Below the pieces are notes generated by a model. The model saw only the letters and a program-made list of their open reading frames with translations. It was not told the origin of the DNA and did no database searches. Positions 3,466 to 51,291 of a DNA stretch of 64,000 nucleotides are shown piece after piece; the first letter of the stretch is position 1, and every line of letters starts with the position of its first letter. Location of the stretch: sequence record KC801932; one strand, written 5' to 3'. The translations under genes were made by a program, and so were the position numbers. The DNA is from Escherichia phage Lw1.

Positions 3466-4125
3466 TTAAAAGTTAAATACATTCAGCACGTCAGTTTTCA
3501 ATTCACCAAGCGTACCATTATTTAGGATGATAATATCGTTTGGTTGGGGTTTCAATCCTTTCTCAGTTGAATGGCTATCGTCTTCCCCAGTTTCGCGTTC
3601 GATGAATACAAATTTAGTCCCGAACTTGCTCAGGTATTTATATTCATGTTTTTGTCGAACGTCTGTAATGATAAAGTGATCTTTATCGGATTTCAAGATT
3701 TTCTTCAATACAATGTCAGTCCATACAGAATCGTTCTCATTGCAAACGATGTCAGTACCGAAAACCTGCATCAAACGGCGTATTGTCCAGGGATGTTTGT
3801 TTGTTTGGCAAATTTCATACGCGATGATATCAGCATTATTAAGCCAGTACCCGCGTTTAGTCAACGATTCAATGCCATTAGCAAACAGCATACGCGCACC
3901 TTCGTTAGACATCAACAGGGGTGCTTCCCGATCCCCTGAATAGAATGGGTTTGTTTTAGAGAGTTCTCGCAGATAGCGATCCCCTGATGCAGACATTCCA
4001 TTTCTCAGGATACTCTTTATTTCATCAGCAAGCGCGATTGCTTCAACGTTCTGATAGTTATCCAAAACGAATTGAGAAACGGTGTCTTTACCTGTTCTCT
4101 TTTTTCCGCAAATACCATAAATCAT
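3466..4125 (-). CDS. 1: deoxynucleoside monophosphate kinase (gp1)
   Basis: P-loop GKKRTGKDT, RRLMQVFGTD and DVRQKHE motifs shared with T4 gp1; synteny. Confidence 0.85.
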   Translation of the reverse strand: MIYGICGKKRTGKDTVSQFVLDNYQNVEAIALADEIKSILRNGMSASGDRYLRELSKTNPFYSGDREAPLLMSNEGARMLFANGIESLTKRGYWLNNADIIAYEICQTNKHPWTIRRLMQVFGTDIVCNENDSVWTDIVLKKILKSDKDHFIITDVRQKHEYKYLSKFGTKFVFIERETGEDDSHSTEKGLKPQPNDIIILNNGTLGELKTDVLNVFNF

Positions 4126-42829: not shown

Positions 42830-43483
42830 ATGAAAATTGATTACGAATTAGTAGAAGGGTTCCGTGCTCTGTCTACAAAAGAACAAAAAGGCGCACTGGC
42901 TGACTATGCGCAAAGCACCTTCGATGTAAAACTGAACAAACAGAAATCATTCGATAACATGCTGGCTGATCTGGAAGCTGCTGTACCAGCGGAAGAAGAT
43001 AAACCAGAACTGTTGATTGATTCGCCTGAACCGGAAATTCTGATTAAAGTTGGTGATATAACAGTCACTTCTGACGCAATGAAAGTTGAGATTGATTCGC
43101 CTGTTGATCTATCTGGTGACTTCATGCAATACGTTAAAGACGTTGCTCCTTGTGTCGCTGATCAGATCACGCTAGTTACCGATGATGTAGAACCTCCTGT
43201 AAGCGATTCTAACGAGTCCAAACCCGATATGGCATGGTTGGATTGTTTTAGCCCTACAATCGTTCTGATGGGGCGTAGCGCTCGTTCTAATGGGTATTAC
43301 ACATGCCCCTGGTGGATCTACGATTGGATTAAGAAAAATCCAGATTGGCACAAAGATCCTGACCAGTGTCCGCACTACAGCGCACGGGATACTCTCAAAT
43401 CGCTGGTGTACTACATCAAGCGTGATGGACAAGTTACGGTGCGTGAAACCCGCAACAGTAGTTTCGACACCTTCAAATTTTAG
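42830..43483 (+). CDS. hypothetical protein (217 aa)
   Basis: ORF track trimmed to ATG 42830 with GGAG SD; shares a YxxPWWI(Y/F)D motif with ORF 44534..45037. Confidence 0.55.
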   Translation: MKIDYELVEGFRALSTKEQKGALADYAQSTFDVKLNKQKSFDNMLADLEAAVPAEEDKPELLIDSPEPEILIKVGDITVTSDAMKVEIDSPVDLSGDFMQYVKDVAPCVADQITLVTDDVEPPVSDSNESKPDMAWLDCFSPTIVLMGRSARSNGYYTCPWWIYDWIKKNPDWHKDPDQCPHYSARDTLKSLVYYIKRDGQVTVRETRNSSFDTFKF

Positions 43484-43583
43484 CACTTTTTGCTAATAAA
43501 ACTTGTTGACCGTTACCCTGCTTTCGCGTATATTTGTATTCGAAGGCGGGGGAAAGGCTCTCGCAGTGAAGAAGGAAAGCAAA

Positions 43584-43901
43584 ATGAAAAACGAAATGAT
43601 GAAAAACGCTTACTATCCAGTTCTGTTTGTTTGGGGTGATGGGAAAGTTAAGAAAGTCGTCAATTCAAAAGCTCCTTATTACACTGTTGGAGAAGCTCTC
43701 CGTCATGCTGCTGAGGCTAATTATCCGGTAGCTTTCGAACCTGGTTATGCTCGTTGGAACGGTTCTAAATGGGTTGCTGATAGTTGGGATAATTACGAAG
43801 AAGAAAGAATGGAATGTGATCCTGATTACGTTTCTCGTCAGATGGAAGCACATATGATTGCAGATCGCCGTCTTGATAACGAAGCTCGCGGTTTCTACTA
43901 A
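43584..43901 (+). CDS. hypothetical protein (105 aa)
   Basis: ATG 43584 with GAAGGAAA SD; followed by terminator. Confidence 0.5.
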   Translation: MKNEMMKNAYYPVLFVWGDGKVKKVVNSKAPYYTVGEALRHAAEANYPVAFEPGYARWNGSKWVADSWDNYEEERMECDPDYVSRQMEAHMIADRRLDNEARGFY

Positions 43902-43909
43902 AATTTGAA

Positions 43910-43931
43910 AGGGGCTACGGCCCCTTTTTTC
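43910..43931 (+). terminator. rho-independent terminator
   Basis: aggggc tacg gcccct + ttttttt. Confidence 0.75.
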
Positions 43932-43942
43932 ATAGGTGAATT

Positions 43943-44506
43943 ATGTTGAACCATGAATGTTTGAAAGATTTAAGTGACGGTAAAGAGATCGGGAACGTTA
44001 TATTTCTCGATATTGATGGAGTTCTAAATAATATGCGGTCTATGAAATTCGGTGAACATATGGACATCGAATGTGCGCGACACTTGCGCCGGATCGTGAA
44101 CCATGCAGATTGTGATATCGTTGTTTCTTCAACATGGCGTATAGGAAACACGACACACAACCTACGTGAAATTCTGTACCCCTGGGGGCTTTATCGCGTT
44201 ATCGGTCGAACTTGTAGTAATATGCAGGGTGCTTACCAACGTGGGGATGAAATCAAGGCATGGATCGACGCTTTCGGATGTAAGAATTATCTTATTCTGG
44301 ATGATGATCGCGACATGTTACAGGAACAGAATGAACACTTCATTCGAACCGATCCTTACATTGGGTTGACAGAAGAACAATCAACCTTTGCGATCCGTAA
44401 TATATTTGGAATAACGACCCCGTTTTGTCCTGAATGCAATGGCTACGGGCGCGTGAATGAATATGATAAATGCGGTAGCTGCAACGGTAAAATTTTACGT
44501 CTATAA
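43943..44506 (+). CDS. HAD-superfamily hydrolase with C-terminal zinc ribbon
   Basis: Motif I FLDIDGVL, motif ILDDD; C-terminal CPECNGYG...CGSCNGK. Confidence 0.6.
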   Translation: MLNHECLKDLSDGKEIGNVIFLDIDGVLNNMRSMKFGEHMDIECARHLRRIVNHADCDIVVSSTWRIGNTTHNLREILYPWGLYRVIGRTCSNMQGAYQRGDEIKAWIDAFGCKNYLILDDDRDMLQEQNEHFIRTDPYIGLTEEQSTFAIRNIFGITTPFCPECNGYGRVNEYDKCGSCNGKILRL

Positions 44507-44533
44507 ATATAGAAAAATTAAGAGGTTTCAACA

Positions 44534-45037
44534 ATGGCTACTGAAAAATGGACTACGGTTCACCCTATCCCGTGGCGTAATACCAGTTTTACCTATCTCC
44601 CGTGGTGGATCTTCGATATTATCGTTGCTGCTAATACGGCTGGTGATGACTGGCGAGGTTACGCCGAAGAAAAATATGCGAAAGAATTCGACACTCTGAA
44701 ACAGGCATACATCGATTATACCGATGTTGATTTCATCGAATCTCGCAACGGTTATCTGTATAAACTGAGTGATTTTACTCCTGCTGATCCTGTCGTAACA
44801 ATTACACCAAAAACCGCTCCTGCTGATTTCAAAGTAGGTGATGCTGACCTAGCTGCAACTGATCTGTTTACCATCGATCCTTCTGGTACAGCAATGACTC
44901 TGAGTGTTGACTCTTCCGGTCATGGTTCTATCGTTGGTGGTAAACTCCATGCGGTTAGTGAAGGTGATGTTGTCGTAACAGCAACCTCTGGATCTGTTAC
45001 TGCAACTCTGACGGTAAACGTTAAACCTGCACTATAA
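44534..45037 (+). CDS. hypothetical protein with C-terminal Ig-like (Big_2-type) region
   Basis: C-terminal beta-rich segment (VVTITPKTA...SVTATLTVNV); N-terminal YLPWWIFDII motif. Confidence 0.55.
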   Translation: MATEKWTTVHPIPWRNTSFTYLPWWIFDIIVAANTAGDDWRGYAEEKYAKEFDTLKQAYIDYTDVDFIESRNGYLYKLSDFTPADPVVTITPKTAPADFKVGDADLAATDLFTIDPSGTAMTLSVDSSGHGSIVGGKLHAVSEGDVVVTATSGSVTATLTVNVKPAL

Positions 45038-45054
45038 CAACTAAGAAGGTAAAA

Positions 45055-45555
45055 ATGCTGCTATTTGAATTCAATGATGTATTCGCAAAATTCAGCGATG
45101 CAATCGAAGCTAAATTTGGCAAACGTCCACAAAACATGACAGAAACAGAATATAACGATGCTGTTTCGTCCCTGGTTCGTACAGATTTCTATGAAAAGCT
45201 GGCGATCGAGGTTTTGGGCTGGGATATGATGAAATGGGGTATGACTTATCGCGATCGCGAAGTCGGTTTTATTCTCGTCAACGAAGTCAAAAGCCCGTCC
45301 TGGGTGAATAACCAGAAAATAGCATATATGGATAAAGTATGTGCGGAAATGGGGATTGTTCGACTGGACTTCTGGACTTGCCGTGATCTGAACGAACTGA
45401 AAGGTCACGCGTACCGTTGCCCGTTGATTTCTCGCAATGAGAAACACCGTCAAGCATGGGATAGCGCTGGGAAATATCGTAGCGTGTTCCTGAACGACGA
45501 CATTAACATCACTATTCAGGACGTGAATCGAGCGTTCACTGAATACCATCCATAA
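45055..45555 (+). CDS. NT5C/HAD-like protein with degenerate motif I
   Basis: Parallels the convergent neighbour 45588..46055 (shared TDFYE.L and LNDD/LIDD) but motif I reads FEFNDV instead of FDMDGV. Confidence 0.5.
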   Translation: MLLFEFNDVFAKFSDAIEAKFGKRPQNMTETEYNDAVSSLVRTDFYEKLAIEVLGWDMMKWGMTYRDREVGFILVNEVKSPSWVNNQKIAYMDKVCAEMGIVRLDFWTCRDLNELKGHAYRCPLISRNEKHRQAWDSAGKYRSVFLNDDINITIQDVNRAFTEYHP

Positions 45556-45560
45556 TAAAA

Positions 45561-45586
45561 AAGGGAACCGCAATGGTTCCCTTTCT
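45561..45586. terminator. hairpin terminator between convergent genes
   Basis: aagggaacc gcaat ggttccctt; T-run on minus strand side. Confidence 0.6.
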
Positions 45587-45587
45587 T

Positions 45588-46055
45588 CTAGGCTATTTTT
45601 CTTATTTCTTTCAAGGCTTCTTCTTTGCTTCCAACGAAGAGGATCGCTTTACCTCCGGCTTTTCTGAATGGCAACACGGCTTTTGCTCTGTCGTCTATCA
45701 GTATGCCCTGGCTCGCGTAGGCTGCTTTGTCTTTGCTGCTTTTGGTGTAGTGGAATTCAGGTAAGTATCCCAATTCTCTCAACAGCGCTTTTTTCTTCTG
45801 TTCTGCTACTTCTTCTGAATCATACTTCCCAACACTGGTCAAGATCGCAACCTGTCCCAATGTTTTCAGGTGGTGGAACAATTCAAACCCTTCTTTTAAA
45901 GGTTTCAGGTTTTCGTAGAAGTCGGTTTTTGCGATTGCTTGTTTAGCCTTTTTCAGTTCTTCTTCTGGCATTCTCGCCGGATCACCATACATCGGTATGA
46001 AAGAACCTTCCCAATCAAACAGTACACCATCCATATCAAAGAAAAACTTATTCAT
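45588..46055 (-). CDS. HAD-superfamily 5'(3')-deoxyribonucleotidase-like hydrolase
   Basis: Motif I FFDMDGVLFDW, motif ILIDD; start at ATG 46055 (MNKFFF...) with GAGGAA SD. Confidence 0.6.
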   Translation of the reverse strand: MNKFFFDMDGVLFDWEGSFIPMYGDPARMPEEELKKAKQAIAKTDFYENLKPLKEGFELFHHLKTLGQVAILTSVGKYDSEEVAEQKKKALLRELGYLPEFHYTKSSKDKAAYASQGILIDDRAKAVLPFRKAGGKAILFVGSKEEALKEIRKIA

Positions 46056-46104
46056 ATCAATTCCTCGCCTTGTGTGTGCATAATATTCATATATGTTCTC
46101 ATTG

Positions 46105-46938
46105 TCAACCCCATGTATCGGTTTTAGGTGCGTATGCTGCAACTTTAGCCACTAATTCCTTATCAAGCTGATCAATGGATTTCTGCGGTTTGCCTTTTGC
46201 CTTAACTTTGATGTAATTAGACTTGACAACGAACATACCGCCTTTGTCGGATTTCTTAACTTCGCTATCAATACCAACTTTGTTAAAGCTGATCCAGATG
46301 TCACCATCCATGTACTGTTTCAGAGAATCGCCCATGTTAAGGATCTTAGCCATAGTAAGCGCGGCCCCTTCGTGGGTATCCATGAGGATCTCTTTTGGAA
46401 CAACACGGTCGCGTTTCAGGTTCTGCTGCATGGCAATATGAACATCGTTCATTACCCAAACGATATGGATGTTTTCTTTCTTGTACCCCAGCGCTTCAAC
46501 ATCACGGGCGATACTTGCCAGTTTGCTCATGCTTTTCAGGGTTACGTCAAAAATCAGGTTTGGTTTGCGATCTTCCGGTGCTGCTGCGATACCAGCATAA
46601 ACACGCGCCTGGTTTTTGTTTGATACGTTGAAAACGTCTGCGATCACATGGTGAAGTGTTGCAACGTTATCAGGGTTTTTCAGGTTCATTGTTTTAACGT
46701 CATGACCTGTTTTTGCTTTAATTTCTGCTGCTAGTTTGGTGCTACCCATTACCAGCTTTTTCAATGCGTCAACGTCCAGTGTGATCCCTTCGATGCCTAA
46801 CAGCTTTTCGAGAGTGAAGCCTTTACCGGAACCCGCACCGCCAGCCAGGATCACGACCTGACCGAATTTCTGATAAGCCTTACCGCCGAAGGTAATCAGC
46901 GCTTCATCAAGGCTCACAAAGTCTTTGAATGATTTCAT
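46105..46938 (-). CDS. protein with CTS-like N-terminus and glycine-rich nucleotide-binding loop (candidate packaged P-loop enzyme)
   Basis: N-terminus MKSFKDFVSLDEA resembles capsid targeting sequence; VVILAGGAGSGKGFT loop; GGAG SD. Confidence 0.6.
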   Translation of the reverse strand: MKSFKDFVSLDEALITFGGKAYQKFGQVVILAGGAGSGKGFTLEKLLGIEGITLDVDALKKLVMGSTKLAAEIKAKTGHDVKTMNLKNPDNVATLHHVIADVFNVSNKNQARVYAGIAAAPEDRKPNLIFDVTLKSMSKLASIARDVEALGYKKENIHIVWVMNDVHIAMQQNLKRDRVVPKEILMDTHEGAALTMAKILNMGDSLKQYMDGDIWISFNKVGIDSEVKKSDKGGMFVVKSNYIKVKAKGKPQKSIDQLDKELVAKVAAYAPKTDTWG

Positions 46939-46970: not shown

Positions 46971-47000
46971 TTGACATCGTTTTGCTGATGGATTTATAGT
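46971..47000 (+). promoter_or_regulatory. sigma70-type promoter (TTGACA - 18 nt - TATAGT)
   Basis: In divergent intergenic region upstream of ORF 47051. Confidence 0.45.
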
Positions 47001-49670: not shown

Positions 49671-50717
49671 ATGTTTGTGAAATATTCTTCTCTTACTAAC
49701 CATTACGAAGGTAAGTTCATTAATGGCGTGATCATGAATGGCCTTACTGGTGGTGTGTGGTGTGCTCGTGAAAAGATACACGGTACAAACTTTAGTCTGA
49801 TTACTTCGGACGGTGAAAAAGTCATTCCAGCAAAACGTAGCGGTGAAATCCTTCCTACTGAACAGTTTTACGGTTGTGAACCTGTCGTTGCAAAATATTC
49901 TAATGCTGTGCGCGAGTTGTGGGAAACCCTCGCAAATACCTGTGAATATAAGGAATACGCTGATATCGGTTCTCTGGTTGTACAGGTATACGGCGAATTT
50001 GCGGGGCGTGGTGTTCAAAAAGATGTTGATTACGGAGAAAAAGATTTCTATGTATTCGATATCCGTGTGAATGATAAATTTTTACCAGATAACATTGTTG
50101 CATCGGCTGCTGTTTGTGTTGGTTTGAAAATGGCTCCATTGCTGGCATATGGTACGTTTGAAGAGATCCGCGAACTGCCTATCACGTTTGATTCTGTTGT
50201 CAACCTGGCTAATTCCGGCGCAATTGTTGCGCAAAATGGCGTTGAACCTGCGTTCAAAAACTTCATGACTCTGAAAGATGGTGAAGGTGAAAACATCGCG
50301 GAAGGTTTCGTGATGAAGCCCGTCGAACCTGCTTTCATGCCGAACGGTGAACGCGTTGCGATCAAATGCAAAACGACGAAGTTCACAGAGAAGAAGAACA
50401 AGCAAGCGAACCGCTTCAATGCTCCTGTTGAACTGTCTGAAAATGATAAAGTTAAACTGGATGTGTTTACCTGTTACCTGAACGAAAACCGCGTGAAAAA
50501 TGTTTTGTCTAAAATTGACAGCGCAAATCTCACTGCAAAAGATTTCGGTCGCGTAATGGGCCTGACGGTACAGGATGCGCTGGAAGAAATCGAACGTAAT
50601 TATGGCCCGTTCCTGGAACAGTTCGAGAATCCAACGCTGGCGAAGAAAACCTTCACTAACGAAGCGTCAAATCTGGTTCGTGAGAACTGGGGCGCAATCC
50701 TGAACAATGAATTTTAA
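49671..50717 (+). CDS. rnlB: RNA ligase 2 (RnlB)
   Basis: MFVKYSSLTNHY..., REKIHGTNFSL (ligase KxHG-type motif I), GEFAG.GVQK, RVAIKCK, GRVMGLTVQD closely parallel T4 Rnl2. Confidence 0.9.
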   Translation: MFVKYSSLTNHYEGKFINGVIMNGLTGGVWCAREKIHGTNFSLITSDGEKVIPAKRSGEILPTEQFYGCEPVVAKYSNAVRELWETLANTCEYKEYADIGSLVVQVYGEFAGRGVQKDVDYGEKDFYVFDIRVNDKFLPDNIVASAAVCVGLKMAPLLAYGTFEEIRELPITFDSVVNLANSGAIVAQNGVEPAFKNFMTLKDGEGENIAEGFVMKPVEPAFMPNGERVAIKCKTTKFTEKKNKQANRFNAPVELSENDKVKLDVFTCYLNENRVKNVLSKIDSANLTAKDFGRVMGLTVQDALEEIERNYGPFLEQFENPTLAKKTFTNEASNLVRENWGAILNNEF

Positions 50718-51291
50718 AACGGTTCTGGACAACGCGAAGACGGCTACCCTGATCGGTAGCCGTGAACCCCCCGAACGTATCGCAAACCTCGCAATCAAGA
50801 TCGGACGCGCTTTAAGTGATCGGGAAATATTCGCTTACTCTGGTGGTGCTCCAGGAATGGATAGTCATTTTTTATTTGATTACTCACCAGAAAGACGGCG
50901 TATAATTCTTCCTGAGAACGGTTTTAACGGGTTGTACTCAAATGGTAAGGATATCATCGACTATACAGAATACGACACGTACAAAGCCGCTGACGAAGCG
51001 AGAAAGGTAGCTGGACACTTCGACAACCAAAACGAATGGACACAGCGCCGATATGCTCGAAATTCCATGCAGGTGCTAACCGAACATCTGGATACGCCTA
51101 CGGATTTTGTGTTATTCTGGGCTGTTGAAAAAGAGTTTTGTGTGAAAGGCGGTACTGCGATCGCAGTAAGATTGGCCCGACTGTATGGCATACCCTGTTT
51201 CAATCTCTGGAATGAACGGGTATTAAATGAAGTTTGCGACACTTTGGGGATTAATACTAAACCTCCAACTTTGGATTTTCTCTGGTGCTAA
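50707..51291 (+). CDS. SLOG/DprA-like Rossmann-fold protein
   Basis: YSGGAPGMDSHF motif reminiscent of DprA/LOG-type nucleotide-binding fold. Confidence 0.45.
   Translation: MNFKTVLDNAKTATLIGSREPPERIANLAIKIGRALSDREIFAYSGGAPGMDSHFLFDYSPERRRIILPENGFNGLYSNGKDIIDYTEYDTYKAADEARKVAGHFDNQNEWTQRRYARNSMQVLTEHLDTPTDFVLFWAVEKEFCVKGGTAIAVRLARLYGIPCFNLWNERVLNEVCDTLGINTKPPTLDFLWC

Follow-up and report, generated by a model that had tools for sequence, protein, structure and literature searches.

Escherichia phage Lw1 (KC801932) carries three neighbouring genes with HAD-like products, which we refer to as A, B and C, in a 64,000-nt stretch of its genome (the window). A first-pass annotation of these letters had described the three as a cluster containing a convergent pair of paralogues, one of them with a degenerate catalytic motif, and all three open reading frames (ORFs) are present at the positions it gave. 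Megablast of positions 43400..46300 matched 175 phage records, led by the Citrobacter phages vB_Cfr_Xman and CfP1 (~93% identity) and followed by Miller, RB16 and RB43 (85 to 90% identity). On the strength of these relatives, we place the window in Pseudotevenvirus, as an RB43/Miller-like genome of the T4 type. Along the locus the genes run uvsW (-), inh (+), a small ORF (+), A (+), hoc (+), B (+), C (-) and K (-), and the arrangement in which A, hoc and B converge on C and K is identical in Slopekvirus, in Pantoea phage Phynn and in three metagenomic contigs, whose B proteins are ~50% identical to that of Lw1. Overall, the explanation that best accounts for this locus, and which we hold to be probable, is that B is a selectively maintained, dead paralogue of the nucleotidase C with a binding or regulatory role. 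The features on which the analysis draws are as follows.

43907..43928, plus strand: intrinsic-terminator-like hairpin a short way upstream of A, with arms AGGGGC and GCCCCT and then a T-run; -15.7 kcal/mol, z -2.9.
43943..44506, plus strand: gene A, 187 aa; apparent HAD_SAK_2 phosphatase carrying a single predicted DnaJ-type CxxCxGxG zinc-finger unit at residues ~161-184.
44502..44509, plus strand: T4-type late-promoter motif TATAAATA, overlapping the A stop codon and lying 25 nt upstream of hoc.
44534..45037, plus strand: hoc-like head decoration gene (phrog_11091, E 1.9e-113).
45055..45555, plus strand: gene B, 166 aa, beginning MLLFEFNDVF; predicted NT5C-type pseudo-phosphatase with the HAD fold.
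45560..45584, both strands: bidirectional terminator hairpin between B and C; -15.3 kcal/mol, z -4.4 (plus) and -18.5 kcal/mol, z -5.8 (minus).
45588..46055, minus strand: gene C, 155 aa; predicted NT5C-type 5'(3')-deoxyribonucleotidase with complete catalytic motifs.
46080..46108, minus strand: sigma-70-type promoter of C, TTGACA-17-TATTAT, inside the 3' end of K; 11 of 12 consensus matches.
46105..46938, minus strand: gene K; Zeta-toxin-like P-loop kinase fold (PF06414, E 6.2e-8, 32.8 bits, cut-off 22.3; phrog_5268, unknown function).

The intact member of the pair is C. Its reading frame starts at an ATG preceded by a GAGG ribosome-binding site and contains FFFDMDGVL and ILIDDR, and its catalytic residues are D7-x-D9-G-V, T73-S74, K87, K110 and D121-D122. 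Across 21 C homologues, D7, D9, K87, K110, D121 and D122 never vary, and T73 and S74 hardly do. C matches phrog_2643, "5'-3' deoxyribonucleotidase" (E 1.5e-56), and scores just below the gathering cut-off of PF06941 (23.0 bits against 24.8; E 8e-5), for which several of its close homologues carry a precomputed match. A family profile built from the 21 homologues matches the solved nucleotidases mdN, cdN and 3bwv at 9e-9 to 4e-6, with 4mum, 3bwv, 1mh9 and 2i7d at 9e-9 to 4e-7, and the AlphaFold2 (AF2) model of C has a predicted local distance difference test score (pLDDT) of 96.5. With every residue for Mg2+-dependent phospho-aspartyl catalysis present, the prediction that C is a working deoxynucleoside monophosphate (dNMP) phosphatase is well supported, and C would function like the NT5C deoxyribonucleotidases, of which it is a borderline-scoring member. 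In the RB16 record (NC_014467.1; L007, locus positions 3636..3660), the T-run just past the ATG of C has one extra T. This shifts the frame, so that the annotated coding sequence is taken from the Met within D-M-D-G and misses the nucleophile Asp; the insertion is either a homopolymer sequencing error or a true knockout of C.

B is a diverged paralogue of C and has the HAD fold; the RB43 counterparts of B and C are ORF239w and ORF240c. The two proteins align by BLASTP (E 3e-5) across the TDFYE.L stretch that the first-pass annotation had already recognised as common to them, and profile-profile comparison of the two families with hhalign gave a probability of 97% (E 7.8e-11, 134 columns), so B and C are indeed the convergent paralogue pair. 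B also matches phrog_2643 (E 3.6e-54). Its AF2 model (pLDDT 94.2) has a Rossmannoid alpha/beta core with the strand order and cap insertion typical of HAD proteins, its best structural matches in the PDB are mdN, cdN and 3bwv, and its secondary-structure elements follow one another in the same order as those in the model of C. B had no match in Pfam (E <= 1), NCBIfam or PADLOC, and the B-family profile retrieved no PDB sequence at E <= 10. Its ties to NT5C are therefore solely phrog_2643, the hhalign alignment to the C family and structure.

The catalytic motifs of B are degenerate, and hhalign, two MAFFT alignments and a per-orthologue table agree on which are lost. Motif I reads E5-F-N7-D-V (ExNxV) against D-M-D-G-V in C, which bears out the initial remark that FEFNDV stands in place of the catalytic DxDG. 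The T-S of motif II in C (ILTSVG) aligns with V75-N76 of B (ILVNEV), and no B orthologue has Ser or Thr there. At motif IV, the D-D of C (ILIDDR) aligns with S126-R127 of B (PLISRN), both on beta-4, and this pair is [S/T/C][R/G] in all B orthologues. The first-pass annotation had instead equated an LNDD of B (residues 146-149) with the ILIDD of C. This does not stand: hhalign, MAFFT and the AF2 maps all pair ILIDD with PLISRN, and we rejected LNDD as motif IV of B on its location after beta-5 and its variability among orthologues. The partner C proteins, by comparison, keep DxDGV, TS, K and DD in nine cases out of nine.

It had also been suggested that B lost its nucleophile. The degeneracy of the motifs is real, but the nucleophile is not simply lost: the position holds Glu in Lw1, and Asp is still there in the B of Yersinia phage JC221, in that of Phynn and in several metagenomic orthologues. 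Motif I variants among the B orthologues are DFDDT (found in Slopekvirus only), DFNDV, DINDV, EFNDV and EYNNV (in one more distant B). Stronger signs of predicted catalytic death had been missed, namely the changes of Asp+2 to Asn, of Thr-Ser to Val-Asn and of Asp-Asp to Ser-Arg, the last two in every orthologue. Because Asp+2, the Ser/Thr of motif II and both Mg2+-site Asp residues of motif IV are gone, we consider it very probable that B is a pseudo-phosphatase, incapable of HAD phosphoryl transfer. The earlier description of B as a duplicated NT5C-type nucleotidase stripped of its phosphatase machinery thus holds for Lw1, where motifs I, II and IV have all gone. The drift of motif I across orthologues is as expected for residues out of use, and the most parsimonious course of events is an early loss of motifs II and IV, after which motif I drifted because it had fallen out of use.

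Other parts of the site have been kept. F13 (nucleophile +8), F45-Y46 and K88 are invariant in B. In the alignments F13 corresponds to W15 of C and F49 of mdN, F45-Y46 (the FY pair of the TDFY motif) to F46-Y47 of C and the NFFF segment of mdN, and K88 to K87 of C and K143 of mdN; the position matching K110 of C is Lys, Ala or Leu among B orthologues. In the structures of mdN and cdN these aromatics stack on the nucleobase, which we treat as a lead and not as a test. B has, in addition, conserved residues of its own: the K20-Y33 patch with KFGK.P..MT..EY, E77, S80-P81, D93, C96 and W135.

Selection on B is strong. The within-genus ratio of non-synonymous to synonymous substitution rates (dN/dS) is 0.047 for B (Nei-Gojobori, 25 pairs, mean dS 0.71), compared with 0.052 for hoc, 0.058 for A, 0.077 for C and 0.021 for K, the most constrained gene of the neighbourhood. 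The ORF of B is intact and of full length in 176 phage records and is present in metagenomic contigs as well. Purifying selection of this strength argues that B has a function. Between genera, B diverges ~3.5 times faster than C (dN 0.56 vs 0.16).

The B family is confined to one phage clade. Relatives were sought by two word-indexed searches and an exhaustive hidden Markov model (HMM) search of 1.84e9 representatives. At 90% identity they formed 10 clusters among 5.8e9 proteins, and at 50% identity there were seven representatives among the 1.84e9, all from the same clade, and no wider B-like family emerged from these two collections. The top scores of the B-family HMM are C proteins of that clade. 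Aeromonas phage AS-sw (L014 1240..1722) and Cronobacter phage LPCS28 (L015 2483..2959) have one C-like gene and no B; the C-like gene adjoins uvsW in both and, in AS-sw, lies ~0.7 kb upstream of the RNA ligase gene. This single gene indicates that the place of the nucleotidase in the uvsW-to-rnlB interval is older than the duplication. The preference of the B HMM for C proteins of the same clade, together with the absence of B from other Straboviridae, indicates that B arose by local duplication of C. As part of the overall explanation that we regard as probable, B and C would thus go back to an old inverted duplication of an NT5C-type gene in an ancestor shared by Pseudotevenvirus, Slopekvirus and a few of their T4-like relatives.

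The two genes are likely to be expressed at different times. The motif TATAAATA occurs 10 times in the window against 2.8 expected, and of 12 related loci, seven carry an exact copy where A meets hoc and the other five have no exact match there. B follows hoc after a gap of 17 nt; it is preceded by a ribosome-binding site and has no separate promoter motif. The sigma-70-type promoter of C is nearly invariant in RB43, RB16, GuL6 and Miller. From the late-promoter motif before hoc, the 17-nt hoc-B gap and the separate promoter of C, we infer early expression of C and late production of B, together with Hoc. The GC-rich hairpin between B and C folds on both strands and shows compensatory changes in relatives, which identifies it as a bidirectional terminator. 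A terminator is annotated in the CfP1 and Miller records at the site equivalent to the hairpin upstream of A. A consensus terminator scan missed both hairpins, which were found by folding and conservation. Two further near-consensus sigma-70-type promoters lie on the plus strand nearby: TTGACC-17-TATATT at 43506..43534, upstream of a 105-aa phrog_7518 ORF, and TTGACA-18-TATAGT at 46971..47000, upstream of a 297-aa phrog_7439 ORF.

Given that B is conserved, a non-catalytic regulatory or binding role appears the most reasonable. B would most likely be a non-hydrolysing binder of a nucleoside, of a nucleotide or of the C enzyme itself; NT5C enzymes act as dimers. Made with Hoc from the late promoter, B could then sequester substrate or damp C at the stage when replication and packaging of the genome call for dNMPs. 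That B holds a nucleoside or nucleotide, or pairs with C, late in infection is a tentative proposal. A more specific version, in which late dead nucleotidase forms inactive B-C heterodimers that stop dNMP dephosphorylation when precursors are required for DNA packaging, or else acts as a ligand sponge or sensor, is more speculative still. If true, it would be the first phage case of temporal control of nucleotide metabolism by a paralogous enzyme/pseudo-enzyme pair.

Several points weigh against a binding or regulatory B. Its rapid divergence between genera fits a loosely constrained role, and equally an arms-race role. The B-specific conserved residues might mark a new active site instead of a binding surface, and the invariant E77 past beta-2 could in principle serve as a substitute metal ligand. 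Slopekvirus B has a canonical DxDxT, so residual or altered catalysis could persist in some orthologues. The lateness of B is read from a promoter motif and spacing only, and transcription from the early-type promoter at 43506..43534 might read through into A, hoc and B. Finally, we found no paper or biochemical data on B, C or their orthologues in the literature.

The best-surviving alternative, which we consider unlikely, is that B is a neofunctionalised enzyme whose scaffold was rebuilt on E77, S80, K88, D93, H118/R121 and R127 for a Mg2+-independent reaction or another substrate. Its own invariant or near-invariant residues do cluster in the loops past beta-2 and around the former motifs III and IV, and the very low within-genus dN/dS would suit an enzyme. 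However, several of the candidate residues vary: two orthologues have Tyr in place of H118, two have Gly in place of R127, and P0059 has Asn in place of D8. The carboxylate at the old nucleophile site toggles between Asp and Glu. Moreover, B matched no characterised enzyme family beyond NT5C.

RefSeq and PHROG annotation would instead make B a second 5'(3')-deoxyribonucleotidase, an isoenzyme with unusual motifs. The phrog_2643 match and the RefSeq product names in many genomes agree with this, as do the acidic residue that stays at the nucleophile position and the DxDxT of Slopekvirus. Engineered Asp-to-Asn variants of the known enzymes speak against it, having been crystallised with substrates bound according to their PDB titles: mouse cdN D12N with dGMP (2jao) and mdN D41N with dUMP (1z4i). 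B lacks, besides Asp+2, motifs II and IV, the latter two in all orthologues, and neither a Pfam NT5C/HAD match nor a PDB sequence match to the family profile was obtained. The D12N and D41N variants were reportedly made as inactive substrate traps. We therefore give the isoenzyme little credence.

A third possibility is that B is a head-associated or assembly protein built on the HAD fold, co-expressed with Hoc and acting on or in the capsid. B does lie directly downstream of hoc in every locus, behind the late-promoter motif and in a block with inh and hoc. Yet we found no structural-protein homology for B and no virion proteomics evidence for it in the literature, and the retained aromatics of the nucleoside pocket point to a small-molecule ligand, making a capsid role very improbable. 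Finally, a functionless B, whether a decaying pseudogene or an annotation artefact, could be read from the degenerate motifs and the between-genus dN (0.56 vs 0.16 for C), but it was rejected and is effectively refuted by the dN/dS of 0.047, by the full ORF and ribosome-binding site in 176 phage records and by the pLDDT of 94. We retain, as the probable reading, a dead B with a binding or regulatory role.

The third HAD gene, A, stands apart. The HAD fold was correctly assigned to all three proteins, A belonging to HAD_SAK_2 (PF18143; E 9.6e-30, 104.2 bits, cut-off 27.5, profile positions 1-138 of 139), and in this sense the three-gene cluster is real. A is, however, kin to B and C at the level of the superfamily only: in pairwise comparison with C just motif I aligns (E 0.017), and a close paralogy of A with the pair was rejected on this alignment and the different Pfam family. 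A matches phrog_1818 (E 5e-53), retains both motif I (FLDIDGVL) and motif IV (ILDDD), and is conserved, at the corresponding place, in Slopekvirus, in Phynn and in metagenomic contigs. Its C-terminus had been called a zinc ribbon. A predicted metal-binding C-terminus is indeed present, but as a putative DnaJ-type CxxCxGxG unit and not a generic ribbon: CPECNGYG-x7-CGSCNGK forms a single two-repeat CxxCxGxG...CxxCxGx unit, which scores 22.0 bits against PF00684 (DnaJ_CXXCXGXG), below the cut-off of 32.7. Phmmer of A against the PDB returned weak matches, solely to the zinc fingers of Ydj1, DNAJA2 and anti-TRAP. A is therefore apparently a HAD_SAK_2 phosphatase, unrelated to the B/C pair beyond the superfamily, and from its motifs it looks active. 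The known systems nearest to it are HAD_SAK_2, which is the HAD domain found in RNA-repair proteins of the 'Swiss Army Knife' type, and the 3'-phosphatase domain of T4 Pnkp; A is a clear member of the former, with DxD and DDD motifs, and its substrate is plausibly a polynucleotide end. In A the domain stands alone, joined to the putative DnaJ-type zinc finger, and is not part of a multidomain repair protein.

Within 6 kb of A lie the P-loop kinase-like K and an Rnl2-type RNA ligase, a link to A that is positional only. The ligase gene (49671..50717, plus strand; PF09414 1e-18, T4_Rnl2_C 2e-14) is ~3.6 kb away from the cluster, so that a phosphatase, a kinase fold and a ligase occur together in ~7 kb of the window, and the same trio co-occurs in a metagenomic contig (L012). 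These three could form a dispersed end-healing and sealing set. Directly behind the ligase, a 194-aa ORF (50707..51291, plus strand) has a weak DprA/DNA_processg_A match (PF02481, 21.6 bits, cut-off 29.6). K itself is co-oriented with C, lies directly upstream of it and adjoins it in every locus examined; a PDB search found no sequence relative of K. The hoc gene varies in length, as compared at window 44534..45037, L001 4133..4873 and L002 4140..4643: Hoc has 167 aa in Lw1, Miller and RB16 and 246 aa in CfP1 and probably in Xman (where the match is also in two pieces). In the RB43 record hoc is split into two ORFs, and Slopekvirus has an extra Ig-like 'tail protein' ORF ahead of a short hoc.

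Database labels for the pair deserve correction. Many of the 176 phage records name their B orthologue a '5'-3' deoxyribonucleotidase' or a 'phosphatase', a label that is probably wrong for B and right for C, to judge by their motifs. The Klebsiella phage Roth22 record names its C orthologue 'anti-RM protein dam3'. We considered a connection with DNA modification and dropped it for want of evidence, since the paper on the unknown DNA modification of Slopekvirus mentions no phosphatases or nucleotidases (PMC5219037). B and C offer a clean contrast between a predicted active and a predicted dead protein in one fold, and two or more phage genera have kept it. The variants DFDDT, DFNDV, EFNDV and EYNNV of motif I resemble successive stages of decay, which makes them useful for studying the origins of pseudo-enzymes. 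Were B to regulate C or sequester a nucleotide, this would be a new type of control over phage nucleotide metabolism, and one present in therapeutic-candidate phages of Klebsiella, Enterobacter, Citrobacter and Cronobacter. The finding is a testable lead and does not change the field.

Judged by the catalytic motifs of NT5C and of the HAD superfamily, B should not be classed as a nucleotidase. C has the same fold, cap type and four HAD motifs as the human and mouse 5'(3')-deoxyribonucleotidases mdN (NT5M) and cdN (NT5C) and the Staphylococcus epidermidis protein 3bwv, but is shorter (155 aa) and falls slightly below the Pfam gathering score. B has in common with these enzymes one Lys of the active site, the FY pair and the aromatic eight residues past the nucleophile. 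Asp+2 and motifs II and IV are missing from B, and it matched the family neither in Pfam nor among PDB sequences. Its change of Asp+2 to Asn is the same as in cdN D12N, provided that Asp12 is the Asp+2 of cdN, which we take to be the case. Whereas cdN D12N and mdN D41N are single laboratory mutations in an otherwise intact site, B has also lost the Mg2+-site Asp residues and motif II, and its changes are natural and selected.

Among phages, the 5'-deoxyribonucleotidase Dmp is encoded in the first-step-transfer region of T5 (PMC12629751). As an early phage enzyme that dephosphorylates dNMPs, Dmp is likely a functional analogue of C; T5 was not among the tblastn matches of C, and no sequence relation between C and Dmp was detected. 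We know of no dead paralogue reported for T5. Our literature search likewise found no description of the B/C pair or of a phage NT5C-type pseudo-enzyme. Pseudo-phosphatases and viral enzyme/pseudo-enzyme pairs are nevertheless established concepts, and the vaccinia B1 kinase with its B12 pseudokinase is a viral pair of active and dead paralogues in which the dead copy is regulatory (PMC6395007). That pair differs from B and C in fold and chemistry, being protein kinases, and belongs to a eukaryotic virus, so the analogy is conceptual only.

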